DNA from: an uncultured delta proteobacterium
Lineage (GTDB): Bacteria; Desulfobacterota; Binatia; DP-6
DNA: 64,000 bases
Direction: 5' to 3'
Assembly: GCA_963746505.1 (NCBI GenBank)
Contig: CAVVBN010000010.1
Location: 1,142,846 to 1,206,845, forward strand
Shown here: positions 47,115 to 64,000 of the stretch, one piece after another
Layout of the letters: each line of letters begins with the position of its first letter
How positions within the stretch are numbered: position 1 is the first letter of the stretch
Made by a program: the position numbers and the translations under genes
The notes under the pieces: generated by a model
Told to the model about the DNA's origin: nothing
What the model saw: the letters and a program-made list of their open reading frames with translations, nothing else
Database searches by the model: none

Positions 47115-49383
<2,269 letters not shown>

Positions 49384-49400
<17 letters not shown>

Positions 49401-49899
49401 ACGTCCAGTACTTGCTGGCGACGAAGTTCCACAGCACCACGAAGGGCACGGCACAAACGGACGCCAGGACCACGGCGTTCGCCTCGGGATGCTCGCCGAA
49501 CTGGAAGAGCCGTCCCGTCCAGGCGACGAGGAACGCCTTGGTCAGCGCGAGGTTCAGCCCCAGGCCGACCAGGTTGGTGGTGAGGAACATCGAGTACTGA
49601 CGCCGCGCGCGCGCGTGGTCGCGGGCGCGGAACGTCCAGGTCCGGTTCCAGACGAACCCGTTGGTGACGGCGAGCGCGAACGAGATCGTCGCGCTCACCC
49701 ACCATGGCGTCCGCGGCAGCACGTCGTTGACGAGGACCCATAGCGTGCCCTTGTCGATGACGGTGCTGGTGGCGCCGACGAGGCAGAACTTGACCAGCTG
49801 GCGCACGCCACGCCGTTGCGCCAGCGCCGAGGCGCGGTCCGAGAACGTTGCGGTTCTGCCGGGCGGGGGCGCCATCGTGGAAGCCCGCACTATAGACAT
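49384..49899 (-). CDS. GtrA-family membrane protein
   Basis: Intact 171 codons with LVKFCLVGATSTVIDKGTLWVL, NRTWTF and KYWTF. Confidence 0.8.
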
Positions 49900-49926
49900 A
49901 CTTGCGGGTCCGCTCCCAATCGCCCG

Positions 49927-51071
49927 TCAGCCCGCCGCGTCGTCGCCGGGCCACGAGCCCATCGCGGGCGTGTCGAGCCGATCGGGTCGCGACTCGCCGC
50001 GCGCGACGCGCGCCAGCAGCTCATCGAGACAGGCGAACGTCGTCGCGTTGTCCCGCGAGCGATAGCCCTCCAGGGCCTGTGCGTGGCGGCCGGCGCGCTC
50101 GAGGAACGCCTGCGACCGCATCCGCGTCGAGGGTGCGCGTCCATTCGCCGTAGCCCAGGTGTGCCAGCCAGCGGGCGTTCAGCTCCTGCTCGAACTGGCC
50201 GTCGATCGGCTGCACCAGCATCGGCACATGGAGGTGGACGGCCTCGCTCATGAACGAGAAGCCGCCCCCGGCGATGACGGCACGGGCGGTGCGAAAGTCG
50301 TCGACGAATCCCTGCTCGGCGAACGGCCGGACGGTGACCGTGCCACCGCTCCCCGTGCCGCCGAAGCCGTAGACGATGAACCGGCCCGGGCAGCCGGCGC
50401 AGCACGTCGAGGAGCTCCGGGCGCATCGCGGCCGATGGATAGACGAGCACGTGATCACGCGGCTCGCGCACCGCCGCCAGGATCGGCGGACGCAGGATCG
50501 GTGGCACCAGCGTCGTCCGCGCCTTCCGCACCGGAGGGAAGAAGAAGCTGGTGACGAGATAGTGGTACGCCCCGGGCAGCTTGGCCTTCACCGCCAGGCG
50601 GGCGATCAGGAAGTCGCGCCGCTCGGGACCCAGCACCGCGGGATCATGACGACAGCGGTTCAGCACCTGCATGTTGTCGATGCTGATGACGGGCTTCCGG
50701 TGCACGCGGGCGTAGACGTAGGCCCAGGACTCGAAGTCGCTGATGACGACGTCGGGCGCGAAGCCGGCCTCGGCGACGCGCCGGTACACGCCGACGTTGT
50801 GCAGCAGCCGCTTCGGCGCGCGCTCGAGGTTCTCGCGCAGGCTCTCGAGGAGGTCGAGGCCGCCGCCGTCTTCGAACTGGAGCGTCAGGCCGGCGATCTC
50901 CTCCACCGTCGCGCGAGGGAACGCGCGCAGCCGCTCGCGCAGCAGCGCGTGGGCGCGACCCGACACCACCACCCGCACCTCGTGGCCCGCGCCGAGGAGG
51001 TGCTCGAGCAGCACCAGGCTGCGGGTCGCGTGCCCCATCCCCTCGCCGACCACGCCGTAGAGGACTCGCAT
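49927..51071 (-). pseudogene. glycosyltransferase (GT1/GT28-like, MJ1255 type); frameshifted as assembled
   Basis: ATG 51071 begins MRVLYGVVGEGMGHATRSLVLLEHLLGAGHEVRVV. The C-terminal half is in other frames (FIVYGFGGTGSGG..VIAGGGFSFMSEAVHLHVPMLVQPIDGQFEQELNARWL). At least 2 indels. Confidence 0.65.
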
Positions 51072-51126
51072 GCACCGAGGGTAGCGCCCGTTCCCGCGGG
51101 TTGCCATCCGGTGTAGGAGAGCCGGC

Positions 51127-51928
51127 ATGACGCTCTCCGGACAGACCATTCTCGTCACCGGCGCCTCCTCCGGCATCGGCGCCGCGCTCGCCCCCATGCT
51201 CGCCGCGCGCGGCGCGACCGTCGGCATCGTCGCCCGGCGGAAGGACCGGCTCGAGGACGTGCTCGCCGCGTGCCGGCGGCACGCGCCCGCGTCGCGCATG
51301 TGGGCCGCCGACCTCGGCGATCTCGACCGCGCCGAGCAGGTCGCGCGCGAGGCGTGGGACGCGTTCGGCGCGCTCGACGTCCTGGTGAACAACGCCGCCA
51401 TGGGCAAGCGACAGCCCGTCCAGCGCCTCACCACGGCGGAGATCACGCAGGTGATGGACCTGAACTTCCATTCGCCCGTGCGGATGGGCCAGGCGTTGCT
51501 GCCGCGCATGCTGGAGCGGCGGCGCGGCACGATCGTCAACGTCGCCAGCCTCGGCGGTCGGGTCGGCATCGTGAACGAGGCCGCGTACTGCGCCGCCAAG
51601 TTCGCGCTCTGCGGCTGGAGCGAGGTCATGGCCATGGATCTGGCCGGGACCGGGGTGCGCGTCTGCGTCGTGCTGCCCGGCCCGATCGCCACCGAGATCT
51701 GGGAGACGCGTCCCGGCGACGTGCCGGCGCTCTACCAGGGACCGTTCGTCTCCGCCGAGGATTGCGCGGCCGACATCGTCCGCGCGATCGAGGGCGACCG
51801 CTTCGAGTACTACGCGCCGGAGACAGGTCGCGGGCGGCTTCGCACAGAAGGACGTCGTCCTCGGCAAGACGCAGGACCCCGACGCGTTCATCGCATCGAT
51901 GCAGGCGATGGCCGCGAGCGCACGCTAG
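51127..51928 (+). pseudogene. short-chain dehydrogenase/reductase (SDR); one frameshift near the 3' end as assembled
   Basis: Motifs are [23 protein letters not shown] and YCAAKFALCGWSE. My own translation of the end gives QKDVVLGKTQDPDAFIASMQAMAASAR*. Confidence 0.75.
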
Positions 51929-52282
51929 ATGGACGAGCCCGGCGAGACGCGGTTCCGGGCGCTGGCGGTGCACGGCTCCGAGGCCCGCGCCACGCTGACG
52001 CCGGCGCACGCGGAACGCCTGTGCGCCGGACACTTTCCCGGTCAGCCGCTGCTGCCGGGGGCCGCGCTCGTCGGGCTGATGGCGGAGATGGCCGCACGCG
52101 CGGCGGGACGACCCGACGCCACGCCGATCGAGGTGGTCCGCGCCGTGTTCGTCGCGCGCGTGCATCCCCGCGATCCGATCGAGATCACCGCGCGGGCCCG
52201 CGCTGGGCGCGTGGACGCGGACGTGCGCTGCGCCGGTCGCCGGGCCGCCCGAGCGACGTTCCGCTTCGGCGCACCGCGATGA
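51929..52282 (+). CDS. FabZ/FabA-like hotdog dehydratase subunit (carries the HFPG motif)
   Basis: Intact 117 codons with GHFPGQPLLPGAALVGLMAEMAA. The ATG directly abuts the SDR stop. Confidence 0.65.
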   Translation: MDEPGETRFRALAVHGSEARATLTPAHAERLCAGHFPGQPLLPGAALVGLMAEMAARAAGRPDATPIEVVRAVFVARVHPRDPIEITARARAGRVDADVRCAGRRAARATFRFGAPR

Positions 52283-52671
52283 GCCTGCCGCGGCCGGACG
52301 AGCTGCTGCGGCACCGGCCGCCGGCCCTGCTGCTCGAGGCCCTCGACCGCCTGGAGGACGGACGCCTGTCCTGTACGACGACGACCCGCGCCAGGTGGAC
52401 GTGGCCGGACGTGCTGGAGAGCGCCGCCCAGGCTGCCGGCCTCGCGGCGGGACTCCTCGACGAGGGCCTCGACAACACCGCCGTGATCGCCGAGTACCGC
52501 CACGTCCGCATCCACGTCCCCACGCACGCCGGCGCGCTCCGCGTGACGGCGGCGCTCGAGCGCCGCGTCCTCCACTTCCGGCGCTGTCGCGTCGAGGCGC
52601 GCACCCTCGACGGCGCGCTCCTGCTCGAGGCCACGGTCACGCTGGCACCGGGCGAGCGACATGACGGATGA
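52279..52671 (+). CDS. FabZ-like hotdog protein (carries the LxHRPPxLLL motif, no HFPG)
   Basis: It lies in the frame of table ORF 51127-52671. ATG 52279 overlaps the upstream stop (ATGA). The sequence is MSLPRPDELLRHRPPALLLEALDRL. Confidence 0.6.
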   Translation: MSLPRPDELLRHRPPALLLEALDRLEDGRLSCTTTTRARWTWPDVLESAAQAAGLAAGLLDEGLDNTAVIAEYRHVRIHVPTHAGALRVTAALERRVLHFRRCRVEARTLDGALLLEATVTLAPGERHDG

Positions 52672-53798
52672 CGTCTACGCCGTGCTGGCGGAGGCGGGCT
52701 TCGGCGCCGACCTGTTCAACCCCGCGCAGCACGCGGCGTTCGAGCGGATCGACCGCTACGCCGAGGCGCTGGCCGCCGGGCTGCTCGATCGGCTCGAGCT
52801 GACGGCGCTGCTCGACGACGCCCCGGACTCCCGGCGAGCTCGTCGCCGCGCGCGGCTTCGCGCCCGCGTTCACGCCGATCCTCGGCTGGCTCCTCGAGCT
52901 GCTCGTGACGACGGGCACGCTCACCGCGTCCGCCGGCCGCTTCGCACTGTCGACGAACGCGCTGCCCATCGGGGCGGACCCATCTCCCGATCCGGATCCG
53001 GCCTACGCCCCGGCGTACGCGCTCCTCGACGAGGCGGCGGCACTCTACCCGCGCGTCGCCGCCGGCGAGACGACCGGCGAGCAGGCGCTCTTCCGCAAGC
53101 TCATGCTGTGGACGAGCTACTTCAGCAACGCGAACCGCTACTACGCGCTCAACAACCGGGTCGCCGCCCGGGCCGCCGCGGATCGGCTCGGACTCGCCGC
53201 GTCGGTGCTCGAGCTGGGCGCCGGACTCGGCAGCGCGACCGAGGCGCTGCTCGAGGCGATCGCCGCACGGGGTGCCGCGGATCGCATCGTCGCCTACCGC
53301 GTCACCGAGCCGGCCCTGCTCTTCCGCCGTCGCGCCGAGCGCGCGCTCGCCGGGCGGCATCCGGCGCTCGTGTTCGACGCCCTCGACCTGAATCAGCCCT
53401 GGGCCGGTCAAGGGATCGCGGAACGGAGCCAGACGCTCGTGTGGGGCGTCAACGTCTTCCACCTCGCCCGCAACCTCGACGCGGTGCTGCGCGAGGCGTA
53501 CGCCGCCCTCGCGCCGGGTGGGTGGCTGGTCGTCGGCGAGGGCGTCCGCCCGACCCCCGATCACCCCGTCGCCGCGGAGCTCCCGTTCCGCCTGCTCGAG
53601 AGCTTCGTCGCGGTGGAGATCGATCCGCGCCGCCGGCCCACGCCGGGGTTTCTCGCCGCCGAGCAGTGGCGCGATGCGTTCGTGGCCGCAGGCTTCACCG
53701 AGATCGCGCTGGTGCCGGACGTGATCCGGCTGCGCGCGATCCACCCCGCCCTCTACGCCGCCGCGATCTGCGGGCGGCGCCCACTCACACCATCGTGA
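52661..53798 (+). pseudogene. class I SAM-dependent methyltransferase; one frameshift as assembled
   Basis: The 52661 piece (MTDDVYAVLAEAGFG) joins ORF 52905-53798, which has the SAM motif VLELGAGLGSATEAL and GGWLVVGEG. It overlaps the upstream gene by 11 nt. Confidence 0.7.
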
Positions 53799-54540
53799 GG
53801 CCGCCGTCGACGTGCACCGTGGTTCCGGTGAGGTACGACGCCGCGGGCGAGGCGAGGAACGCGATGACCTCTGCGACCTCCTCGGGGCGGGCGAAGCGGC
53901 CGAGCGGAATCTGCTTCTCCAGCTCCGCACGCGTCGCGGGCGGCATGTCGGCGATCAGGTGCGTGTCGACGAAGCCCGGCGAGACCGCCGTCACCGTGAT
54001 CGCGTAGCGCGCGACCTCGCGCGCGAGGGATTTCGTCAGCGCCACCAGGCCGCCCTTCGCCGCGGCGTAGCTCGACGCCCCCTCCTTGCCGAAGAAGGCC
54101 GCCGGCGAGACGACGTTGACGATGCGGCCCCAGCGCCCGGCGATCATGCCGCGCAGCGCGGTCTTGCAGCAGAGGAACGCCCCGGTGAGGTTCACGTCGA
54201 GGACGCGGGCCCAGGCGGCGTCGGGCAGCATCATCACGAGGCCGTCGTGGCTGACCGCGGCGTTGTTCACCAGGATGTCCGGCGGGCCGCCGAGCGGCTC
54301 GCGGATGGCCAGGAACAGGTCCTTCACCGCCTCGGCGTCGGCGACGTCGGCGCGGCTCGCATGTCCCCGCGCACCGAGCGCGCGGAGCGCGGCCAGGGTG
54401 TCGTCCGCCTCGCCCTCGTCCTCGCTGCGCGAGTAGTTGAAGGCCACGGCCGCGCCGGCCTGCGCGAGCGCCAGCACCGTCGCGCGCCCGATGCCGCGCG
54501 ATCCGCCCGTGACCAGCGCGCGCCGTCCCGCGAGCGTCAT
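53785..54540 (-). CDS. fabG: 3-oxoacyl-ACP reductase (FabG-type SDR)
   Basis: Intact 251 codons with [34 protein letters not shown] and HVDGGLTM. Confidence 0.85.
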
Positions 54541-54589
54541 GCCCGGGCTCTACACCAAAGTCCAGGCCGCGCACACCCGGTCGCCGATA

Positions 54590-55229
54590 GTGCCGTGCCG
54601 CGATTGCCCGTATACCGTCGTCGTGGCCGCGTACGCCCTCGTCGGCTGGCTGCTGTTCGCCACGCTCGCGTTCGGCCTGCGCAGCCTGGTGCACTGGTGG
54701 CAGACCGGGACGAGCGGGTTCCTCGGCATCGCCGGCCGTCCCGGATCGGTCGAGTGGCTGGGCGGCGTGGGCTTCACCGTCGCGGCGCTCCTCGGGCCAC
54801 TGGCCCCGGCGCTCGTCCTGGCCGGCGCGTCCGACACCTGGCCGGCGCTCGACGTCCCGCCGGTCCACACCCTGGGGATCGTGCTCTACGTCGTCGGCGT
54901 CGTGGCGACGCTCTGGGCGCAGCTCGCGATGGGGCGATCGTGGCGCGTCGGCGTCAGGAACGACGAGCGCACGGCGCTGGTCACCGCCGGACCGTTCCGT
55001 TGGATCCGCAATCCCATCTACACGGCGATGCTGCTCGCCGTCGCCGGACTGGCCCTCGATGGTACCGACCGTCGTCTCGGCCCTCGCCATCGGCGCGCTG
55101 CTCGCGGCGCTCGAGCTGCACGTCCGCGCCGTCGAGGAACCGTACCTCACGCGGGTCCACGGCCGGGCCTATCGCGACTGGGGACGCCGCACCGGTCGTT
55201 TCCTCCCCGGCATCGGCCGCCTCTCGTAG
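54590..55229 (+). pseudogene. isoprenylcysteine carboxyl / phospholipid methyltransferase-family membrane protein; one frameshift as assembled
   Basis: GTG 54590 is followed by TM segments and [20 protein letters not shown]. My own translation of the end gives [40 protein letters not shown]. Confidence 0.6.
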
Positions 55230-55240
55230 CCGAGCCTCGG

Positions 55241-56661
55241 ATGCCCGTCGCCGCGACCTATCGTCCCGCGCCCCTGCATCCGCAGCTCGGCGACGCCTTC
55301 TACGACGTCGTCGAGCCGGCACGGTTTCCCGCGGCACACGCTCCGCCACCGCAACCAGCGCTGGGCCGAGCGCGTCGGCCTCGGCGCGCTCGACGGACGC
55401 CGAGTGGGAGGACCACTTCGCGCGCTTCGCGCCGCTGCCCGACAACCTGCCGCGAGCCGCTCGCGCTGCGCTACCACGGCCACCAGTTCCGCGCGTACAA
55501 CCCCGCGCTCGGCGACGGCCGCGGCTTCCTCTTCGCGCAGCTGCGCGACGTCGAGGACGGCCGCCTGCTCGACCTGGCGACCAAGGGCAGCGGGCAGACG
55601 CCGTGGTCGCGCGGCGGCGACGGCCGGCTGACGCTCAAGGGCGGCGTGCGCGAGGTGCTGGCGACCGCGATGCTGGAGGCGCTCGGCGTCCCGACGTCGA
55701 AGTCGTTCAGCCTGTTCGAGACCGGCGAGCACGCTGGAGCGCGGCGACGAGCCCTCGCCGACGCGGTCGTCGGTGCTGGTCCGGCTCGTCGCACTCGCAC
55801 GTCCGCTTCGGCACCTTCCAGCGCCTCGCGCTACCACGGCGACGTCGACGGCGCTGCGCGCGGCTGGTCGAGTTCTCGGTCGCGCACTACCTGCCCGAAG
55901 CGCCGCAGGCGCCGCCGACACGCCCGTCGCCTTCCTGCGCGCCGTCGCCGCGCGCAGCGCGCGCCTCTGCGCCGCGTGGATGGCCGCCGGCTTCGTCCAC
56001 GGCGTGCTCAACACCGACAACATGAACGTCACCGGCGAGAGCTTCGACTACGGTCCGTACCGCTTCCTGCCGACGTTGCGACCCCGACTTCGTCGCCGCC
56101 TACTTCGACGCGAGCGGTCTGTATGCGTTCGGCCGCCAGCCCGCGACGGTGCAGTGGAATCTCGAGCGCCTCGCCGAGACGCTGACGCCGCTCGCGCCGG
56201 CGGCCGCGCTCGGATCGGCGCTCGCCGCCTACGGACCCGCGTTCCGCGACGCGTTCGACGCCGCGATGCTCGATCGCCTCGGGATCGGCTCGGCGGGTCC
56301 GGACGAGGATCATCTCCTCGTCGAGTCGATGCTCGCGTTCCTCGAGGCGAGCCGGGTGGGCTTCGACCGGTTCTTCTTCGACTGGTACGGCGGCCCGGCA
56401 AGCGCCGGGCGCGCCGCCCGGAGTCCCTTCGCCGCGCACTACGCCGGGGCGCCGCTTCGCGGCCGCTCCGTCGGCGCCTCGACGAACACGCCATCCGTCG
56501 CTCGCCCCGCGCAGCCGTACTGGCAGCGCCAGGCCCCGTGCTCGCTCCTGATCGACGAGATCGAGGCGCTCTGGGCGGCCATCGCCGAGCGCGACGACTG
56601 GACGCCGTTCGACGCCAAGCTCGACGCCATCGACGAGCTGCGACGCGCCGTCGCCCGCTGA
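55241..56661 (+). pseudogene. selO: protein adenylyltransferase SelO (YdiU/UPF0061); heavily frameshifted as assembled
   Basis: Pieces lie across three frames: [99 protein letters not shown], and the intact tail in ORF 56149-56661. At least 5 indels. Confidence 0.75.
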
Positions 56662-56664
56662 CGA

Positions 56665-58683
56665 TCAGGGGAGACGCGGGGTCAGCCGCTCGACGATCCG
56701 GTCGATGGCCGCGGCCAGCATCGTACGGTCGAGCAGGAGGCCGCCGTCGCCGCCGACCTCGGGGTCGAGCCATCCGCACGCGAACTCGTCGCGCACGGCA
56801 TGGAAGGCGGACCAGTCCCAGCGGTGGAGCACGGGCGTCGGCTGCATGGCGCAGGGAATCGGCACCCCGCGGGCCCGGTGGTCGTGCAGGAAGGCTGCGG
56901 CACGCTCCGCGGTGCTGAAGAGCGCGCAGCAGTCGGCGCGTCCGGGAATCGTCAACAGCTGCGCGCTGCCGGTGTCGGTCTCGAGCCCGAGGTACCAGCG
57001 CGGCCAATCGGCGACCAGACGGGCCGCGAGGGTCGCGGGTATCCGCCGCGCATCGAGGAGCCGCCGCGTCGTGACGACGAGATCGCCGCCGTCGGGCTGG
57101 CGCCCTTCGAGCCGCACCCAGGCGTCGAGCATCGCCAGGTCCACGTGCTCCAGCGGCAGCGGCCGCCCATCCGGCGTCGTGAGCAGGATGCCCGCCACGT
57201 CGCGCGCCGCGGCGAGCCAGTCCGTGAACGGCGCCGCGGCGTGCAGGTCCGACGAGGCGACCTGTGCCCCGAGCCAGCGGCGTCCGTCGTGTTCGACGAT
57301 CGCGTCGCCGCAAGCGAGCCGCGGCCAGGCCGCGAGCAGCGCCCGCACGACCTCGGGCTTGAGCCCCCGCGCACCGGCGAGTCGTCCGAGACCATCGACC
57401 GGCACCGGCGTCACGTGACCGAGGTCCGCCACCTCGTGACAGAGCGGATACACGGCGGGCAGCACCCACGCGCTCGGCGCCACGGCCCAGCCACCGGTTC
57501 CGGTGTGCGCGTCGATGGCGAGTGCGTCGATCGGCGCAGGGCACGCCCAGATCCACCGCAGGAGCTCCACGCCCGTCGCATGCACGAGCCGACGCTCGCC
57601 AGGCGGGTTGGCGGCGACGAGCGCCCGCGCGACCGATTCCTCGGTGCTCGCGTGCACCACCCGCCGTCCGGGCTCGCTCGGATGGGGCCATATCTGCGGC
57701 CAGGCGCGTCCGCCCGCGGGAAGTCCCGCCACCGGAACCCACAGGTCGATCTCGAAGGCGAGCGCCTCGATCCACTCGGCCGCCGACAGCGAGTCCACCG
57801 CGGCGCTTCGCCGATAGCTCTCGAAGAGCGCGCGGGCGTCGTCGTCCCGGCGACCCGCCGGCGGGACAACGATCCCGGACGCTGCTACCGGCGGTGGGCT
57901 CGCCTGGGCGGCTGCCGCCAGCTCGTCCACGTCCAGCAGGCGCGCCGTCGGGAGGGCGGCGTCGACGACGATGCGCGTCGCCCCCGTGCTGCGGGAGAAG
58001 GCCACGAGCGCGCCGACGTCGCACGGCTGGGTCGCGATCGTGGGACGCAGCTCGTGCAGGCGGAGCACGCCCTCCGCCGCCGCGTCGGTCGACTCGTAGG
58101 CGAGCATCTCGGCAGCACCGTCGGCGCCGGGCTGCACGAGCATCGCGCCGCGGTCGGTGACGACCTGGAGGATGCCGCGCGCAGCCAGCTGCTCGATGCT
58201 GAGCAGCGCGTAGAGGCGCGTCAGCGCCTCGCGCGACAGCCGCAGTGCGTGCGCCGCGCCCTCGTCGAACGCGACGCCGGCCGCGTCCGATGCGAGGCAG
58301 TCGCGCAGGTGCTCGACGGTGGCGCGGCGCTCGAGCGCGAGCGAGCCGGCGAACGGCTGCGCGCTCACCCAGGCCTCGGCGAGCTGCGGATCGGTGAAGA
58401 CCATCGGGAGCACGCCGTCGGGGCTCGGAAGGGCCATCCCGGGCGGCACGCCGAGCTCGGTGAGGAAGTCGAAGGCCTCCGCCGGCCGCTCGACGAGGAT
58501 CAGCTCCGGCAGGCGCGCCAGCGCATCGGCCAGCTCGCGCGGGGTCGCGTCGCCGCGGCGCGCTCGCCGCAGCGCCTCCTCGAGCGGTGCGGCCATGGCC
58601 TGCGTCACGGCTGGGGGCGTGCCGACCGAGTCCAGCCGACCGCGCTCGTGCACGAGCGCGGGGCTGTCCTCGAGTCGCGACAT
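56665..58683 (-). CDS. large hypothetical protein built of about 4-5 degenerate SseB-like modules
   Basis: The frame is intact, with 673 codons from ATG 58683. The table ORF extends to 59001, but that leader is Arg/Ser-rich. A recurring module signature is present: [50 protein letters not shown]. There is no TM helix or signal peptide. Confidence 0.55.
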
Positions 58684-58738
58684 CCTCCTATGTCGGCAGA
58701 TCGCACCCGAACCTTGAGCAGGGTAGCCTTCATGTCGG

Positions 58739-61261
58739 ATGCAGGACCTGAACCAGCGCGCCCGCCGGGGTATCCGGGTGCTCCTGCTTCGCCAGGGCCT
58801 CCTGCAGCTCATGGCGCTCGGCGGCGGCATCGTCGTCGCGCGCCGGCTGGGCCCCGGGCCGCTCGGCGTGTTCGGGATCGTGGTCTTCGTCGCCAACGTC
58901 GGCGGGCTGCTCGCCGAATTCGGCCTGAAGACCGCGCTCGTCCGTCGGGCCGACCCGGTGACCGACCGCGAGCTCGTCACGAGCGTCACCCTCCGCCACA
59001 TCCTGGTGACGGTGATCGTGGGCGCCCTCCTCGTCGGCGCACCGTCGCTCGCCGCGCTCTATCCGCGCGTCCCGCCGGACCTCGCGTGGCTGCTGCGCCT
59101 GATCGCCGTCGATCTCTATTTCCGCGCGTGGCGCGCGACGAGCGAGGTGCAGCTCGAGCGCGCGCTCCGCTTCGAGGCCCTGGCGTTCGCCGACGTGGTG
59201 GCGACCGTCGGCTACCAGGTCGTCTCGGTCGGGCTCGTGCTCGCCGGCTGGGGCGTCGAGGGTCTGGTCTGGGGCGTGCTCGTCGGGGATGTCCTCCGCG
59301 TCGTCCTCCTCTATCGGGCCTCGCCGTGGCCCATCCGCCTCGCGCTCGATCCGGGCATCACGCGCGAGCTGCTGCAGTTCGGAGGATCGGTCCAGGCGAG
59401 CCAGCTCATCAGCCAGGCCCCCGCATGGGTCACGCCGACGCTCGTGGCGGGACTCGTCGGGCCCGAGGCGGTCGGCCTCCTCAACTGGGCCGCGTGGATC
59501 GGACGGAAGCCGTTGGAGGTCCTGGAGAGCGTCGTGCGGGTATCGGTCTCGCACTTCGCCCGGCTGCAGGACGACGTCGCCGCGATGGAGCACGTCCTCG
59601 GCCGCTACGTCGTGGCCTCCCTCCTCGCCTGCGGACTGTGGGTCGCCGTTCTCTGCGTGGCCGGCAACGACCTCGTCCGACTGATCTATTCGGAGCGGTG
59701 GGTGCCGGGCATGCCGGCGCTCCTCATCTTCGCGGCGGCGACGATGCTGGCCACGGTGCGATGGATCGCCTCGTCGGCGCTCGTCGGCCTCGGCCGCATG
59801 CGCTTCACCGCGCAGGTCATGACCGTGACGTCGCTCCTCGCCGTCGGGTCGAGCGTCCTCCTCGTGCTCTGGCTCGGCGTGCTGGGCGTCCCCCTCGGGC
59901 AGCTCGTCGGGATGGCGGTGTCGGCGCCGTGGCTGCTCGCCGGTCTCCGCCCCGGGACGTCCGCACGCGTGCTGCGGCAGGCGTCCCGGGTGTTCATTCC
60001 CATGGGCACGTCGATGGCCGCAGGAGCCGTCGCGGCGTTGCTCCCGGTCGAGCCGGCCGCTCGCGGGGTGATCACGGCCGGAGTGGTGACCGTCGTCTAT
60101 TGCGGTGTCGCCTGGCGCCTCGGCGCCGACTGGCTGCGGGCGATCGCGCGCGAGGAGCTGCAGCCGATGTGGCCCGAGGGCTTCCTCAGCGCCTGCGTCG
60201 TCGGATCGCGACGGATGGAGGACGGGCTGCGCTCCGCGTACCTGCGCGCCTTCCCCGCAGCCGTCCTCGCCGTCGTCGACCCACCGCTCCGGCGCGCGGC
60301 CGCCACCGCGCGGAAGGTCGCGGCGATGCCCTTCTACCTCCGGCAGCGGGTCGCCGTGTGCACGGGAGCCTGCGCGCGCGGCCCCATGCGGATCGCACTC
60401 TGGGGCAAACCCGACTCCCCCCGTGCGCTGTTCGACCTGCTCTTCGACGGCGTGCCCGCCGTCGAGTGGCGCGAGACGCGACTCCTGCCAGCGGTCCTCG
60501 ACGAGGCCCCCGCATTCGACGCCGACCTCCTCGTCGCCGAGACGACGCCGGCCCTCGCTCCCGCATTTCGCCGACGGGGATGGCTCGTGGTGCCGAACCA
60601 GGTCCGCTTCGGCGCGAGTCTCACGGCGCTCCGCGCCGCGGCCGCCCGCCCCTCGAAGTCGCTGCGATCGGATTTCCAGCTGATCGCGCGGGCCGGCTAT
60701 CGAACGGAGGTCCGTCCGTACACGACGGCCCTCGGCCGCCGCAGCTTCGACGACTACATCCTCCCGCATGCCCGGGCGCGCTTCGGGGCGGCCTCGGGCG
60801 TGTCCGCATTCCGGTGGTTCGACGTGCAATCCCGCCCCAGCCACGTCCTCGCCGTGTTCGCGCCCGGCGCCCGGGAGCCCGACGCCGTCGCGATCGTCAT
60901 CCCGCGTGGGCGGGTCCTCTGGTTCAAGAGCCTCGGCACGCGCGGCGGCGACCCCGCGATCGCGCGCGCCGGCGCCATCCATGCCCTCTACGAGGCCGCG
61001 ATCGGCTTCGCCGCGGAGCACGGCTTCGCGGCGATCGATGCCGGGCGGTGCCGGCCGTGGCGTCGGGACGGCGTCGCGGCATACAAGTGGAAGCGCGGCT
61101 TCCGCCCGATCCCCGACGGCGCACAGACGATCGAATACGCCATTCGCATCCTGCGTCCGGAATCCGCCGCAGCGCGGCGGCTCGGCGAGGCCGGTGTGTT
61201 CGTACGCGTGGGAGCCGGGTTTCGCGTCCTGGGCCTGGACGGCGCGCTCACGGACGCGTGA
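58739..61261 (+). CDS. fusion protein: Wzx/MOP-type polysaccharide flippase (N-terminal, about 470 aa) + CelD/BcsL-type GNAT (FemAB-fold) domain (C-terminal, about 350 aa)
   Basis: Intact 840 codons. The N-terminal half has at least 10 hydrophobic segments and a Wzx-like start (LLLRQGLLQLMALGGGIVVARRLGPGPLGVFGIV). The C-terminal half is soluble, with GAIHALYEAAIGFAAEHGFAAIDAGR and AAYKWKRGFRP, which are reminiscent of Acetyltransf_6/FemAB-like GNATs. Confidence 0.65.
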   Translation: MQDLNQRARRGIRVLLLRQGLLQLMALGGGIVVARRLGPGPLGVFGIVVFVANVGGLLAEFGLKTALVRRADPVTDRELVTSVTLRHILVTVIVGALLVGAPSLAALYPRVPPDLAWLLRLIAVDLYFRAWRATSEVQLERALRFEALAFADVVATVGYQVVSVGLVLAGWGVEGLVWGVLVGDVLRVVLLYRASPWPIRLALDPGITRELLQFGGSVQASQLISQAPAWVTPTLVAGLVGPEAVGLLNWAAWIGRKPLEVLESVVRVSVSHFARLQDDVAAMEHVLGRYVVASLLACGLWVAVLCVAGNDLVRLIYSERWVPGMPALLIFAAATMLATVRWIASSALVGLGRMRFTAQVMTVTSLLAVGSSVLLVLWLGVLGVPLGQLVGMAVSAPWLLAGLRPGTSARVLRQASRVFIPMGTSMAAGAVAALLPVEPAARGVITAGVVTVVYCGVAWRLGADWLRAIAREELQPMWPEGFLSACVVGSRRMEDGLRSAYLRAFPAAVLAVVDPPLRRAAATARKVAAMPFYLRQRVAVCTGACARGPMRIALWGKPDSPRALFDLLFDGVPAVEWRETRLLPAVLDEAPAFDADLLVAETTPALAPAFRRRGWLVVPNQVRFGASLTALRAAAARPSKSLRSDFQLIARAGYRTEVRPYTTALGRRSFDDYILPHARARFGAASGVSAFRWFDVQSRPSHVLAVFAPGAREPDAVAIVIPRGRVLWFKSLGTRGGDPAIARAGAIHALYEAAIGFAAEHGFAAIDAGRCRPWRRDGVAAYKWKRGFRPIPDGAQTIEYAIRILRPESAAARRLGEAGVFVRVGAGFRVLGLDGALTDA

Positions 61262-62561
61262 CGAGCCCGAGCGTGCCGACGCGCGCACGCAGGTGCGCGA
61301 GGTGCGCCGCATCGCGACCGAGCAGCAGGAGCCACGCGAACGTAGAGCCCACGGGTCCGACGTGTCGGGTCGTCAAGAAGGTCGGGAGCACGCCGCCGCG
61401 TTCTGGCGCCTCCGGCCGCAGGAACTCCTCCCCGAAGTGCCGCCGGAACCGTGCCAGCGTGAGCGGCACCCCGAGCATGCGACGGGCCTCGAACTGCCAG
61501 ACGAACCCGCGGCCCGCCCGCTCGCTGAGGGCAACCACCGCCGCCCAGGGGAACATCATCCCGGTCATGCGGATGTTCGGGTCGAGCGCCAGGAACCGCG
61601 GCCTGTCGACGCCCTCCACGAGGAAGCCGTCGATCCCCGCCGGCGCGTCCACGTAGCCGAGGTCCCTGAGCCAGCCGGCGATTCCTGCGAGCGCGCGGCG
61701 GATCGGCGCGATCTCGTCGGCCTTCCACTCGGGCTCGACGAGTCCGCCGCGGAACACGTGCCGGCGGATGATCTGCTCGGAGAAGAAGAGCGGCGCGAAC
61801 CCCGCGGCGGTCACGAACCCGTGCGTCGCGACGTTGCGGAGGATCCGCGTCGCGGGAACGTACGCCGAGACGAGCACGTCGCCGCGCGCGCGGAGTCGCC
61901 GCCAGACGCGGCGCGCCGCGCGGAGCGTCGGCGCGTAGTGGACGTCACGGCCGGCGGAACCGCGGCGCAGCCGCAGGATGCACCCCGCGCCATACGGCTC
62001 GTGCAGCGCGCGAAATGCGTCCTCGAGCCCGCCGCGCTCCGTCACGCGGCGCATCGGTACCGCCTCGAAGCCGTAGCGAGATGCCGCCTCGGCGAGCGCG
62101 AGCTTGTCGTTCGCGGCGTCGTACGCCGCCGACGGCGGTGCCCATGCTGGCGTGAGACCGAGCCGCGCGACCAGGGCGTCGGCCGCTGCGTCGTTGTAGG
62201 CGAGGACGAGCCGCGCGATCCCACGGTCGGCGCGGAGACGCTCGCAGAGCGCCGCGTCCTTGAGGACGAGCCGCACGACGCTCGTGCGCGCCGTCGGCCC
62301 GGCGGGACAGAAGACGCGTGCCGGACCGAGCCCGAGGCTCCGGTGATAGTCGAGCACCTCCTCGGAGATCGGCGTGGCGGTGACGACGCTGGCGCCGACG
62401 TGGATGCCATGACCCCGGAAGTGCTGCCCGGCCGACGCATTGTCGCCCTCGCCGTCGAGGGCGCTCACGACGAGCGAGTCCGGCGCCCGCAGGGCCGCGA
62501 GCATGCGATCCGCGGCCGGGACGTCGGTGATGCCCAGCTGGACCCACGGCGGCGCAGTCAC
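61248..62561 (-). CDS. ATP-grasp domain protein (peptide/amide ligase type)
   Basis: Intact 437 codons from GTG 62561. ATP-grasp features are [35 protein letters not shown], and [26 protein letters not shown] (the Mg/ATP loop in an ExNxR-like position). Confidence 0.6.
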
Positions 62562-62671
62562 GAGACGGCAGCCATGCCCGAACCCGCACCGGAAAGCGAG
62601 CCCGCCCTCGGGGCTGGCATCGACTGTCGACTCCCCGCATGAGAGGAGAGGAGACCGACGAGGAGGACTCG

Positions 62672-63355
62672 ATGATCGACCTGTACACCGCTCCCACCCC
62701 GAACGGCTGGAAGGCGTCCATCACGCTCGAGGAACTCGAGATCCCGTACGAGGTCCACATCGTGAATCTGATGGCGGGAGACCAGAAGCAGCCCGCCTAT
62801 CTGAAGATCAACCCGAACGGCCGCATCCCGGCGATCGTCGACCGCGACGAGGACGGCTTCGCGGTCTTCGAGTCGGGCGCGATCATGATCTACCTCGCCG
62901 AGAAGGCAGGCCGGCTCCTGCCGAGCGATCGGCGCGGACGCTCGCGCGTGATCCAGTGGCTCATGTTCCAGATGGGCGGCGTCGGCCCGATGATGGGCCA
63001 GGCGAACGTCTTCTACCGGTACTTCCCGGAGAAGCTGCAGCCGGCGATCGACCGCTACCAGAACGAGTGCCGCCGGCTGTTCGAGGTGCTCGACGGCCGG
63101 CTCGGCGAGAGCGAGTGGCTCGCCGGCGACTACTCGATCGCCGACATCGCCAACTGGTCGTGGGTGCGCACCTACAAGTGGTCGGGCGTCTCCGTCGACG
63201 GTCTCGACCACCTGCAGCGATGGATGACCGCGATGTCCGCGCGTCCCGCGTGCCGGCGCGGCGTCGACGTCCCGTTCCCGCTGCCGGCGCTCACCGACGA
63301 CGACAAGGGCGCGGAGGAGTTCGCGAAGAACGCCTCGACCATCGTCCAGCGCTGA
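62672..63355 (+). CDS. yfcG: Nu-class glutathione S-transferase (YfcG-like disulfide reductase)
   Basis: ATG 62672 begins [62 protein letters not shown]. This is close to the E. coli YfcG layout as I remember it. Confidence 0.8.
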
Positions 63356-63401
63356 CCGCCGAGTTGTCCGAGGCCGGGGCCCTGGGCTACGAGCGAGTAG
63401 T

Positions 63402-64000
63402 ATGGCCGTGCTCGCAACCCAGGTCGACCCCCGCTCCGAGGCGTACCGCACCAACCACGCGGCCATGGCCGCGCAGGTGCGCTTCCTCGACGAGCAGCTC
63501 GCCCTCGCCCGCGCGGGGGGCGGCGAGAAGTACGTCACGCGGCACCGCCAGCGCGGCAAGCTGCTGGCGCGCGAGCGCATCGAGCTGCTCGTCGACCGCG
63601 ACAGCCCGTTCCTGGAGCTCTCGCCGCTCGCCGCGTGGGGCACCGAGTACGCGCTCGGCGCGAACGTCGTCACCGGCGTCGGCGTGGTGAGCGGCGTCGA
63701 GTGCGTGATCACGGCGAACGACCCGACGATGAAGGGCGGCGCGATCAATCCGATCACGCTGGCGAAGACCGTCGCGCGCGATGGAGATCGCCGCGACGAA
63801 TCGGATGCCGGTCATCAACCTGACCGAATCGGCCGGCGCCGACCTGCCCGAGCAGGCGAAGATCTTCGTCCCGCGGCGGACGCGCAGTTCCGCGAGCTGA
63901 CGCGGCGCTCGGCCGAGCGCATCCCGACGATCTGCCTCGTCTTCGGCAGCTCGACCGCCGGCGGCGCCTACATCCCCGGCATGTCGCGACTACGTCGTCA
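63402..64000 (+). pseudogene. acyl-CoA carboxyltransferase beta subunit (methylcrotonyl-/propionyl-CoA carboxylase type); 3' end beyond the window; two compensating frameshifts
   Basis: My own translation from ATG 63402 gives [89 protein letters not shown], then ICLVFGSSTAGGAYIPGMS. The middle segment ([25 protein letters not shown]) is in another frame. Confidence 0.75.

Follow-up and report, generated by a model that had tools for sequence, protein, structure and literature searches.

A Wzx-type flippase fused to a predicted Fem/MprF-like tandem-GNAT transferase and its convergent ATP-grasp partner gene in an uncultured bacterium

Does one gene of an uncultured bacterium truly join a membrane flippase to a Fem-like transferase in a single polypeptide and, if so, what would such a protein accomplish together with the ATP-grasp ligase gene that meets its 3' end? 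This question is raised by a locus within a stretch of 64,000 nucleotides (henceforth "the window") from an organism of soil or groundwater, in which a sequence-only reading had recognised three intact genes as a candidate envelope-modification module. The list of open reading frames agrees with the extents given there for gene A on the minus strand (56665-58683, part of a frame running from 56665 to 59001 in which an internal ATG at 58683 yields 672 amino acids plus stop), gene B on the plus strand (58739-61261, ATG start, 840 amino acids) and gene C on the minus strand (61248-62561, GTG start, 437 amino acids). Likewise present are the gap of 55 bp between A and B (58684-58738), which results when the start of gene A is taken at 58683, and the 14 nucleotides (61248-61261, of the form TCA-N8-TGA) which B and C share where they converge stop to stop, while the motif AAYKWKRGFRP is indeed found near the C-terminus of the gene B product. 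That neighbouring genes are frameshifted is true locally, the ICMT/PEMT-SelO region (54437-56661) being broken across several frames. Comparison of the window with its 95%-identical relative L002 reveals 93 indels in 14.8 kb, mostly of single bases and located outside homopolymers, which points to noisy assemblies of both, so that the frameshifts may be either errors or genuine pseudogenes.

The fusion might accordingly be suspected to be an assembly artefact, created by a missed stop codon or an indel at the junction which merges two separate genes, the more so as both assemblies are rich in indels and gene B of L002 is broken into ORFs of 558 and 391 amino acids. The breaks in L002, however, are indels of one to two nucleotides at five scattered sites, none of which is located at the junction. 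Moreover, L003, which stems from a different organism and a different sequencing run and shares 88.6% nucleotide identity with the window, encodes the same 840-residue fusion ORF, which aligns with that of the window gaplessly at 86% amino-acid identity. Finally, the methyltransferase domain of 265 residues which separates the two parts in unfused relatives is simply missing here. The artefact reading is thus already effectively refuted and retains next to no probability, and L003 shows that no stop was missed. Gene B encodes a genuine single polypeptide which consists of a MOP flippase, a linker of about nine residues and a Fem/MprF-like tandem-GNAT transferase.

Homology breakpoints place the junction with its linker at residues 476-484 (PMWPEGFLS; 60164-60190, plus strand). 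Homology to the flippases of L004 and L001 in tblastn stops at window position 60160 and homology to the C-terminal domain, here called X, begins at position 60173. Since the internal Met478 is not kept in L003, there is no conserved internal start within gene B. Of the unfused relatives, L004 is the nearest in each of its three genes (70, 63 and 60% identity), and in it the flippase gene is directly followed by a methyltransferase-X gene (4-nt overlap) and then by gene C (convergent 14-nt overlap). Relative to this arrangement about 836 nt are missing in the window, namely the tail of the flippase and the methyltransferase domain. Judged from these alignments, the fusion arose via loss of the methyltransferase domain between two neighbouring genes: a deletion of about 0.84 kb took the last approximately 11 codons and the stop of the flippase gene plus the methyltransferase part of the gene next to it, and the same event joined X directly to the flippase in the lineage of the window. 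The fusion is a rare, derived and lineage-specific trait of the two lineages which have it, the window and L003, which are about 0.25 apart in dS. Between them dN/dS amounts to 0.275 (bootstrap 0.18-0.39) for the flippase half and 0.34 (bootstrap 0.24-0.51) for X, with a nearly neutral value of about 0.8 for the linker residues. As both bootstrap intervals exclude 1, both halves of B are under purifying selection, the constraint, at a dN/dS of about 0.3, being of moderate strength only.

The assignment of the N-terminal half of B (residues 1-475; 58739-60163, plus strand) to the Wzx/MOP-like flippases, proposed before, is confirmed by Pfam, NCBIfam and orthologue alignments. Polysacc_synt_3 is matched with E 5.5e-42 (144.4 bits versus a cut-off of 23) and Polysacc_synt with E 8.7e-15 (55.3 bits versus 28.2), and this half can, with both cut-offs exceeded, be assigned by profile to the Wzx/PST flippases of the MOP superfamily. 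The NCBIfam matches include MOP flippase, TuaB and O-glycosylation Wzx models, all of them below the equivalog cut-offs; the specific Wzx cut-offs are not reached for WzxC (PRK10459; 78.9 versus 273 bits), TuaB (67.4 versus 580 bits) or O-glycosylation Wzx (68 versus 720 bits), which rules out that the flippase half is an orthologue of any of these three. It nevertheless shares with WzxC and TuaB both Pfam domains and orthologues residing within glycosyltransferase clusters, and differs from them, apart from the scores, by the enzymatic domain of 356 residues added at its C-terminus. The stand-alone orthologues measure about 487 residues, and 21 stand-alone flippases of 464 to 518 residues are 47-70% identical to the flippase half. 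Flippases of this type within the MOP superfamily possess 12 to 14 transmembrane helices and have both termini in the cytoplasm. A crude Kyte-Doolittle hydropathy scan of residues 1-458 yields only nine clear helices, and the half is rich in arginine at both ends, which fits an in/in topology.

Domain X (residues 485-840; 60191-61261, plus strand) had been held to adopt a GNAT/FemAB-like fold, and structure prediction bears this out. The AlphaFold2 model of its 356 residues (pLDDT 92.2, pTM 0.88) is predicted to be a tandem, i.e. duplicated, GNAT fold of the Fem/MprF-like kind. The top 21 matches obtained by Foldseek against the PDB comprise FemX, Sba18/Sbb17, MprF, A-PGS, L-PGS and DUF2156, all with probability 1.0 and E 1e-9 to 3e-7, although with TM-scores of only 0.32-0.41, those to Fem and MprF spanning 0.35-0.41. 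FemX is the best match (E 1e-9), MprF/aaPGS lie at about 1e-7, and acyl-CoA-using tandem GNATs (the clavulanate tandem GNAT and Eis-like enzymes) occur lower in the same list. Sequence profiles respond far less: for X as encoded in the window neither Pfam (at E ≤ 1) nor NCBIfam gives a match, phmmer against the PDB returned none, and the FemAB model of Pfam matches 0 of 29 family members. Acetyltransf_6 is matched by three of the 29 homologues (best 27 bits, cut-off 22), as is LPG_synthase_C by three (best 23.8 bits, below the cut-off of 27.5). X conforms to all 27 invariant columns of its family, and it can be aligned gaplessly with the methyltransferase-X protein P0039 (residues 274-628, 62% identity). 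The motif DGVxxYKWKxGxxP is invariant throughout the family, and its aromatic-Lys-x-Lys-x-Gly core near the C-terminus of X (YKWKRGF) is, as we assume, akin to the F-K motif of the Fem family. The net charge of X, +22, is compatible with the binding of tRNA or of an anionic membrane.

Gene C (61248-62561, minus strand) is predicted to encode an amide or peptide ligase of the PGM1/BesA-like ATP-grasp type. Its AlphaFold2 model (pLDDT 91.9, pTM 0.91) suggests a three-domain, PGM1-like ATP-grasp fold, in line with the original call of an ATP-grasp ligase: Foldseek finds 8ynd, 8yi6 (BesA) and 3wvr/3wvq with TM-scores of 0.65-0.73 and E 1e-15 to 1e-17, and most of the 493 matches at E ≤ 1e-3 are ATP-grasp enzymes. 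PreAtp-grasp scores below its cut-off (E 3.5e-4, 21.5 bits versus 27.5) and is matched by 16 of 40 homologues, while the ATP-grasp core models of Pfam match neither C nor any of these 40, and a profile built from them found none of the PDB sequences. Lys153, Asp311, Asp327, Asn329 and Arg331 (LDPNIR; D-x-N-x-R) are invariant in the 40 homologues; by analogy with the E-x-N-x-R of biotin carboxylase, we presume catalytic or metal-binding roles for Asp311 and for Asp327-x-Asn329-x-Arg331. PGM1 (the pheganomycin peptide ligase), BesA and ATP-grasp peptide ligases of Streptomyces, which form amide bonds via acyl-phosphate intermediates, are the nearest full-length folds and have the pre-ATP-grasp domain and the intact D/E-x-N-x-R motif in common with C. 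They differ from it in sequence (about 16% identity) and in context, C lying beside a flippase and a Fem-like cassette instead of within an actinomycete natural-product cluster.

Comparison with related loci reveals which of the three genes belong together. Of 11 informative loci, 10 have X and C side by side, usually joined by the stop-to-stop overlap, so that the proposed synteny of these two is strong, and the identical 14-nt overlap recurs in L003, L004, L005/L006, L008/L019 and L017 despite proteins which are merely 46-60% identical. B and C thus form a tightly linked convergent pair. X itself occurs fused to a methyltransferase, to a GNAT acetyltransferase or to a flippase, or alone; in relatives it usually carries a SAM-methyltransferase or GNAT acetyltransferase domain at its N-terminus and stands beside C plus one to three CapK/PaaK-like adenylate-forming ligases. 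In loci which contain a flippase, this cassette is inserted into a glycan cluster (GT4, GT2, FAD oxidoreductase, PMT_2-type GT-C), and orthologues of the flippase occupy GT4-GT2-p97-FAD-GT2-PMT_2 clusters whether the cassette is present or absent. The 64-kb window holds neither CapK-like ligases nor the GT4/GT2/PMT_2 genes seen with orthologues elsewhere, and a search in it for the cluster orthologues of relatives returned no initiating phosphoglycosyltransferase, GT4/GT2 or polymerase. By gene order, the B-C pair is a reduced remnant of the larger cassette known in relatives. Other cores dispense with flippase and glycosyltransferases altogether: the X-C-CapK core adjoins a lipid-A-type acyltransferase (Lip_A_acyltrans) in L005 and L019, and lies beside methyltransferases, an amine oxidase and a P450 in L020. 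Because of these three loci the acceptor could be something other than a glycan. The family is rare, the scan having found it, at the sensitivity used, in three of about 185,000 species representatives and in nine JGI metagenome contigs, and every named member of the X or C family is annotated as "hypothetical protein".

Gene A does not share this linkage. It directly adjoins the pair in L002 only, has a further gene between itself and B in L003 and is missing beside flippase or X in eight loci (L001, L004, L005, L008, L011, L012, L021, L023), so that the trio cannot be maintained as a conserved unit. Being adjacent in close relatives only, A is not counted as part of the module; by gene order it appears to be a neighbour of the B-C pair rather than a demonstrated component. 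Its description as a protein of SseB-like repeats stands. Although the window sequence itself scores below the cut-off of the Pfam SseB model (PF07179; E 0.025, 15.2 bits versus 21), the model is matched by 28 of 30 homologues (E ≤ 0.01, the best at 2.4e-13), copies of an F/Y-S/T-S/T-like motif occur at residues 96, 196, 345, 486 and 589, and hhalign relates module 1 (residues 30-160) to segments 161-275, 276-440, 441-560 and 561-672 with probabilities of 95.9, 87.5, 93.0 and 94.1%, although just 24 columns are aligned in the case of the fourth segment. A search for hydrophobic segments found none in this acidic, presumably soluble protein of about five modules. The start at 58683, by contrast, is to be revised: an 80%-identical homologue (P0106) aligns from residue 31 only, the family consensus begins near Met30, and L003 has a 1-nt deletion within the first codons of the longer version. 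For these reasons translation probably starts at Met30 (ATG at 58596), resulting in about 643 amino acids and an intergenic region of 142 bp.

The sequence-only reading knew of no characterised fusion of a flippase with an aminoacyl- or acyltransferase fold, but such a fusion is not without precedent, as MprF couples an aminoacyl-tRNA-dependent tandem-GNAT synthase to a flippase domain, albeit a different one, in one protein (PMC13534887, PMC6103681). Like MprF/LysPGS/AlaPGS, B would combine an N-terminal polytopic flippase with a C-terminal cytoplasmic tandem GNAT in a single chain, an arrangement which in MprF couples synthesis to translocation, and the X model matches MprF, A-PGS and L-PGS with Foldseek E-values of 4e-8 to 1e-6. 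In contrast, the membrane half of B is a Wzx/PST-type MOP flippase (Polysacc_synt_3) instead of the membrane domain of MprF, X itself lacks a significant match to LPG_synthase_C and shares 12-17% identity with MprF synthase domains, and MprF systems lack a counterpart of the partner ligase C. The membrane half and the missing LPG_synthase_C match rule out that B is a member of the MprF family, though it may work like one. Among the structures matched, FemX/FemABX and Sba18/Sbb17 come closest to X (E 1e-9 to 7e-8) and share its tandem-GNAT fold, yet with TM-scores of only 0.37-0.41 and 15-17% identity. Fem enzymes act on lipid- or nucleotide-linked cell-wall precursors at the cytoplasmic face before flipping; unlike B, they are soluble, stand-alone proteins, separate from the flippase of lipid II. 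A further parallel in theme is presumably offered by PEP-CTERM/exosortase exopolysaccharide loci, which we take to unite a Fem-like GNAT (Acetyltransf_6), adenylate-forming ligases, glycosyltransferases, a flippase and a polysaccharide deacetylase. The latter is found in L001. PEP-CTERM-associated NCBIfam models match neither B nor C, however, no exosortase was seen in the examined loci, and the family described here stands apart, with a conserved ATP-grasp partner of its own.

By analogy with these systems, B probably adds amino acids to an envelope precursor ahead of its export. X would lie in the cytoplasm, since the flippase half is rich in arginine at both ends and the termini of MOP flippases are both inside the cell. 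At the inner face of the membrane C would join a carboxylate to an amine through an amide bond at the expense of ATP, for example by placing an amino acid onto the uronic-acid or peptide carboxyl of a lipid-linked precursor. X would load the same precursor with an acyl group or with an aminoacyl group, the probable donor of the latter being aminoacyl-tRNA, and the tethered flippase would then carry the lipid-linked intermediate, now decorated, across to the outer side of the membrane, much as MprF couples synthesis and flipping. We infer that envelope modification is coupled to export. This interpretation of B and C is supported in part, because MprF already sets the precedent of flippase plus tandem GNAT while the chemistry is a prediction. 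That a flippase-tethered Fem-like transferase and a ligase modify an envelope precursor before export, by means of the deletion-born and maintained fusion, appears to us an evenly balanced proposition. A farther-reaching version is possible but rather doubtful: B would be a convergent re-invention of the MprF design, with a Wzx-type flippase and an aminoacyl-tRNA-dependent GNAT, C would be a dedicated ligase helping to decorate a polyprenyl-linked envelope precursor with an amino acid or short peptide before it is handed directly to the flippase, and the wider cassette would serve a tRNA-dependent peptidylation of glycans or lipids, as yet undescribed, in uncultured bacteria akin to the Binatia.

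Three other readings compete with modification of a lipid-linked precursor by B and C. X could aminoacylate the head group of a phospholipid or glycolipid in the manner of MprF, with C extending or amidating the product and the MOP half flipping it. Synthase domains of MprF, A-PGS and L-PGS match X nearly as well as FemX, three X homologues match LPG_synthase_C, and the order of membrane domain and synthase is that of MprF; furthermore, glycan-synthesis genes are missing around the pair in the window, and methyltransferase-X adjoins Lip_A_acyltrans in L005 and L019 with neither flippase nor glycosyltransferase nearby. We nevertheless deem such lipid aminoacylation unlikely, given that B has no MprF-type membrane domain, that the characterised relatives of its Polysacc_synt_3/Wzx-type half carry polyprenyl-linked glycans and that its flippase orthologues reside in GT4/GT2/PMT_2 glycan clusters. 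This flippase family and its glycosyltransferase-rich context also speak against a small-molecule pathway, in which X and C, in relatives together with CapK-like ligases, would build a cytoplasmic non-ribosomal peptide or amino-acid conjugate for MATE-like export by the MOP half. Such a role would accord with the natural-product ligases (PGM1, BesA, the Streptomyces ATP-grasp peptide ligase) being the closest structures to C, with Sba18/Sbb17, streptothricin-type aminoacyl-tRNA-dependent peptide synthases, as second-best matches of X, and with the extra methyltransferases, amine oxidase and P450 flanking the L020 core. The tethering of an enzyme with a soluble product to its exporter would, however, be of no obvious benefit, and the window near B and C contains neither a precursor peptide nor other typical natural-product genes, which makes this reading, in our estimation, distinctly unlikely.

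It is conceivable, too, that the fusing deletion disabled the cassette, leaving B as a mere flippase or as a dead protein, and X and C as passengers on their way to loss. Gone from the lineage are the methyltransferase domain, every CapK-like ligase and the glycosyltransferase genes once linked to them, the neighbours ICMT and SelO are frameshifted, and dN/dS values of about 0.3, or about 0.58 for the 97-codon tail of C, do not betray strong constraint. Set against this are the purifying selection on both halves of B, the retention of the 840-residue frame, the 14-nt overlap and all family-invariant residues across the divergence of the two fusion-bearing lineages, and the full length of C with its catalytic motif retained; decay strikes us as quite improbable.

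If the proposed chemistry of B and C holds true, the fusion, rare as it is and known from two lineages only, would be the second, independently evolved case after MprF of a precursor-modifying enzyme tethered to the flippase which exports its product. The series of X fused to a methyltransferase, to a GNAT acetyltransferase or to a flippase, or occurring alone, offers a natural comparison for the benefit of flippase coupling. The cassette, made up of a Fem-like transferase, a PGM1-like ATP-grasp ligase and ligases of the CapK kind, would in that case represent an uncharacterised system for the decoration of glycans or lipids of the envelope in an uncultured lineage about which little is known.

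The window, with a G+C content of ~72%, contains all three open reading frames proposed by the sequence-only reading at the positions it had assigned. According to the ORF list, gene B, the flippase-X fusion, runs on the forward strand (58739-61261, ATG start, 840 aa), and gene C, the ATP-grasp ligase, on the reverse strand (61248-62561, GTG start, 437 aa), both overlapping tail to tail by 14 nt. Gene A, which codes for an SseB-like repeat protein, lies divergently on the reverse strand at a distance of 55 bp from gene B (stop at 56665, ATG at 58683, 672 aa from that ATG). The N-terminal half of gene B is a flippase matching Polysacc_synt_3 (E 5.5e-42, residues 32-323) and Polysacc_synt in Pfam. 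The NCBIfam models for MOP, TuaB and O-glycosylation Wzx match this half far below their equivalog cut-offs, and the flippase alignment, run as a profile against the PDB, gave no match. Twenty-one stand-alone flippases (464-518 aa) are 47-70% identical to it and all stop ~10 residues past window residue 475. Three longer proteins considered as further flippase-enzyme fusions (P0027-P0029, 1093-1119 aa) turned out to be duplicated flippases. P0025 (564 aa, on a 2398-bp JGI contig), a chimera from the same flippase family, combines flippase residues 1-212 (61% identity to the window) with a C-terminal AMP-binding_C_2 domain of the PaaK/CapK type; it could have arisen by assembly error or by another rearrangement within this cassette. 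The flippase orthologue of the related locus L021 (4370-7927), directly downstream of a TIR_2 gene, is called as 1185 aa, the first ~690 residues of which resemble an NTPase and a nucleotide-cyclase-like region. The flippase keeps its own Met (MQDLHE...) within that frame, so the long call may reflect read-through by the gene caller and no true fusion.

Domain X (gene B residues 485-840) alone yielded no match in Pfam or NCBIfam, nor in a phmmer search of the PDB. Its AlphaFold2 model (29-sequence alignment, pLDDT 92.2, pTM 0.88) retrieved from the PDB by Foldseek, at E 1e-9 to 3e-7, Weissella FemX, the aa-tRNA-dependent peptide synthases Sba18 and Sbb17, MprF, A-PGS, L-PGS and DUF2156. As TM-scores are low (0.32-0.41), kinship to the FemX/MprF group is at the superfamily level. 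Acetyltransf_6 or LPG_synthase_C of Pfam is reached by three of 29 X family members, and the invariant block D-G-x-x-x-Y-K-x-K-x-G-x-x-P contains the motif noted in the sequence-only reading, whose FemAB-like GNAT assignment is borne out by the model and Foldseek as a tandem-GNAT fold of the FemX/MprF type. By sequence, gene B is not a FemABX member. The model of gene C (40-sequence alignment, pLDDT 91.9) aligns in structure, from end to end, with the ATP-grasp peptide ligases 8ynd, BesA (8yi6) and PGM1 (3wvr/3wvq) with TM 0.65-0.73 and E 1e-15 to 1e-17, in agreement with the earlier guess of a "PGM1-like" enzyme. D311 and D327-x-N329-x-R331 are invariant in its family. Pfam reveals solely a sub-threshold pre-ATP-grasp domain, which is matched in 16 of 40 homologues, and a PDB profile search with the gene C alignment returned a chance match only (E 0.99). 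X and C constitute two unmodelled, unnamed families.

The start of gene A at 58683 probably lies 29 codons too early, as homologues begin near M30. This judgement rests on P0106, a protein 80% identical to gene A whose alignment begins only at residue 31, on the family consensus, which likewise begins at residue ~31, and on the closely related locus L003, where a 1-nt deletion falls within the putative first codons of the longer gene. Codons 1-29 (58596-58683) are probably non-coding; an AGGAGG box runs straight into the 58683 ATG, leaving no spacer. The protein is acidic and devoid of hydrophobic segments. It matches Pfam SseB only below threshold (E 0.025), while 28 of 30 tested members of its family (78 representatives) match. 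The motif occurs in five copies (residues 96, 196, 345, 486 and 589), and the N-terminal module recurs in all four later segments with a probability of 87-96% in profile-profile comparison, in support of the multiple SseB-like modules claimed. A link of this family to X through one Acetyltransf_6 match was rejected, the X-family HMM reaching a best E of 0.16 on the 78 gene A homologues. The proposed A-B-C trio does not hold as a conserved unit: gene A adjoins gene B only in L002, the other close locus, is present in none of the more distant loci, and in L003 its 5' end is separated from gene B by an inserted gene. SseB-like gene A is probably unrelated to the B-C module. The 1.1-kb insert of L003 (51-1155) codes for a 342-aa Cys-rich secreted protein which has a signal peptide, no Pfam match and no similarity to the window or any fetched sequence; its interpretation as a mobile element was dismissed. 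Neither PADLOC on genes A, B and C nor Rfam over window positions 54000-64000 gave a match, and a scan for promoters and terminators remained at background level.

Among 27 homologues of X, 17 carry an N-terminal SAM-methyltransferase (~625 aa in total; "methyltransferase-X") and five an N-terminal GNAT acetyltransferase (~595 aa), the other five being short or stand-alone; a flippase is attached to X only in the window and L003. X and the methyltransferase-X protein P0039 (residues 274-628) align without gaps at 62% identity. For flippase, X and gene C alike, the nearest unfused relative is locus L004 (70, 63 and 60% identity), in which a flippase of 487 aa is followed directly, with a 4-nt overlap, by a methyltransferase-X of 627 aa, on which gene C, preceded by two CapK-like ligases, converges with a 14-nt overlap. 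In the window flippase homology stops at 60160 and X homology begins at 60173. Compared to L004, ~836 nt are absent, comprising the last ~11 codons and the stop of the flippase and the first ~265 codons of methyltransferase-X. The alignments identify the fusion as the product of a deletion which has since been retained.

X and gene C are linked, occurring together in 10 of 11 independent loci with available flank. They are usually convergent, and the stop-to-stop TCA-N8-TGA overlap of 14 nt is kept at 46-60% protein identity (window 61248-61261, L003 3687-3700, L004 10343-10356, L005 11316-11329, L019 10891-10904, L017 248-261), an arrangement that points to transcripts overlapping at their 3' ends or to a constraint that holds the two genes together. 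Wherever the flanks of an unfused locus could be read, X is accompanied by CapK/PaaK-like adenylate-forming ligases, which complete the cassette of the relatives. In L001 methyltransferase-X faces convergent "AMP-binding-like" genes; these are such CapK-like ligases, a component separate from gene C, to which they are not homologous (E 0.045 and 2.3). The flippase orthologues belong to a glycan cluster (GT4, GT2, a 97-aa protein, an FAD oxidoreductase, GT2 and a PMT_2-type GT-C) which occurs with the cassette in L021 and L004 and without it in L023 and L022; from this distribution, the cassette resembles an optional addition to a glycan pathway. In one sub-lineage, which has two CapK-like ligases, flippase and methyltransferase-X are separated by inserted genes for an HTTM-domain membrane protein (~465 aa) and a GNAT acetyltransferase of 221 aa (L001 11458-13546, L010 1-1539, L021 7935-10004); gene C was not found within 10 kb where flanks were searched (L001/L007). 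The family is rare; at the sensitivity of the scan, three loci came from ~185,000 species representatives (each a MAG with a delta-proteobacterial label) and nine contigs from JGI metagenomes. One flippase relative is labelled Candidatus Binatus.

An artefactual origin of the fusion is highly improbable. L003, from another organism (run SRR19175045, 88.6% nucleotide identity), encodes a gapless gene B of 840 aa, 86% identical, and shares the 14-nt overlap with gene C; in L002 gene B is split into 558 + 391 aa through five scattered 1-2-nt indels, none of them at the junction. The fusion has no missed stop. Window 48990-63807 is 94.7% identical to L002 1-14778 with 93 indels in 14.8 kb, mostly single-base, outside homopolymers and in places clustered (e.g. 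61275-62311, 62697-63772), and at least one of both assemblies has a high indel error rate. Given such noisy assemblies, the frameshifts in neighbouring genes, which had been claimed and are indeed present upstream in the window, would need raw reads to be accepted as true pseudogenes. The ICMT/PEMT and SelO genes (54437-56661) are broken across at least three frames and fragmented in L002, too; in frame 54437-56185 SelO profile positions 12-159 come after a PEMT/ICMT segment, while positions 295-372 lie in another ORF. Either genuine pseudogenisation or a systematic error of assembly could account for this region. That the cassette in the window is a decaying remnant appears improbable. CapK/PaaK-like ligases are absent from the whole 64-kb window, as are the glycosyltransferase genes of the relatives' cluster, and the only glycan-related genes seen near the module, ~8 kb upstream (49384-51071), code for a small GtrA-family membrane protein (49384-49899, reverse strand) and a Glyco_trans_1_3 glycosyltransferase. 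At a dS of ~0.25 between window and L003, dN/dS amounts to 0.275 (bootstrap 0.18-0.39) for the flippase half and 0.34 (0.24-0.51) for X, indicating purifying selection on both since the two lineages split; the 25-codon linker region reaches ~0.8. The Wzx-Fem-like fusion is real, selected and has a dedicated ATP-grasp partner.

Both termini of MOP flippases reside inside the cell. Since, in addition, the flippase half is Arg-rich at both ends and X is strongly basic, we take X to be cytoplasmic. Gene C would form an amide via an acyl-phosphate, and X would load a lipid-linked envelope precursor, subsequently translocated by the tethered flippase, with either an acyl group or an aminoacyl group, the latter probably delivered by tRNA; where relatives have X joined to a methyltransferase or acetyltransferase, that enzyme would cap the newly added amine. 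We tentatively favour a glycan precursor as the acceptor, a reading whose chance we place at even or somewhat below. A lipid version resembling MprF seems unlikely. MprF itself combines a membrane flippase domain with a tRNA-dependent tandem-GNAT synthase (PMC13534887, PMC6103681), and thereby supplies the precedent for a flippase-aminoacyltransferase fusion that the sequence-only reading did not know of. Gene B has a comparable domain layout, and X ranks structures of MprF among its best structural matches, but gene B is not an MprF: its membrane half is a Wzx-type MOP protein and X has no significant LPG_synthase_C match. In L005 and L019 the X-C-CapK core adjoins a lipid-A-type acyltransferase without a flippase, a hint that a lipid may be the target of the cassette in these organisms. 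There, methyltransferase-X is divergent from Lip_A_acyltrans and an unannotated protein of ~400-420 aa (L005 13732-14283, L019 7837-8805). A soluble peptide handed to an exporter we consider rather unlikely as well; in L020 the core adjoins methyltransferases, an amine oxidase and a P450, again without a flippase.

Of the module originally envisaged, the Wzx-Fem-like fusion with its ATP-grasp partner stands, while the inclusion of gene A is not borne out and MprF sets a precedent; the observation is confirmed and its overall interpretation partly supported. The fusion goes back to the loss of a domain within a larger decoration cassette that is as yet uncharacterised, and the architecture of gene B is unusual and open to experiment.
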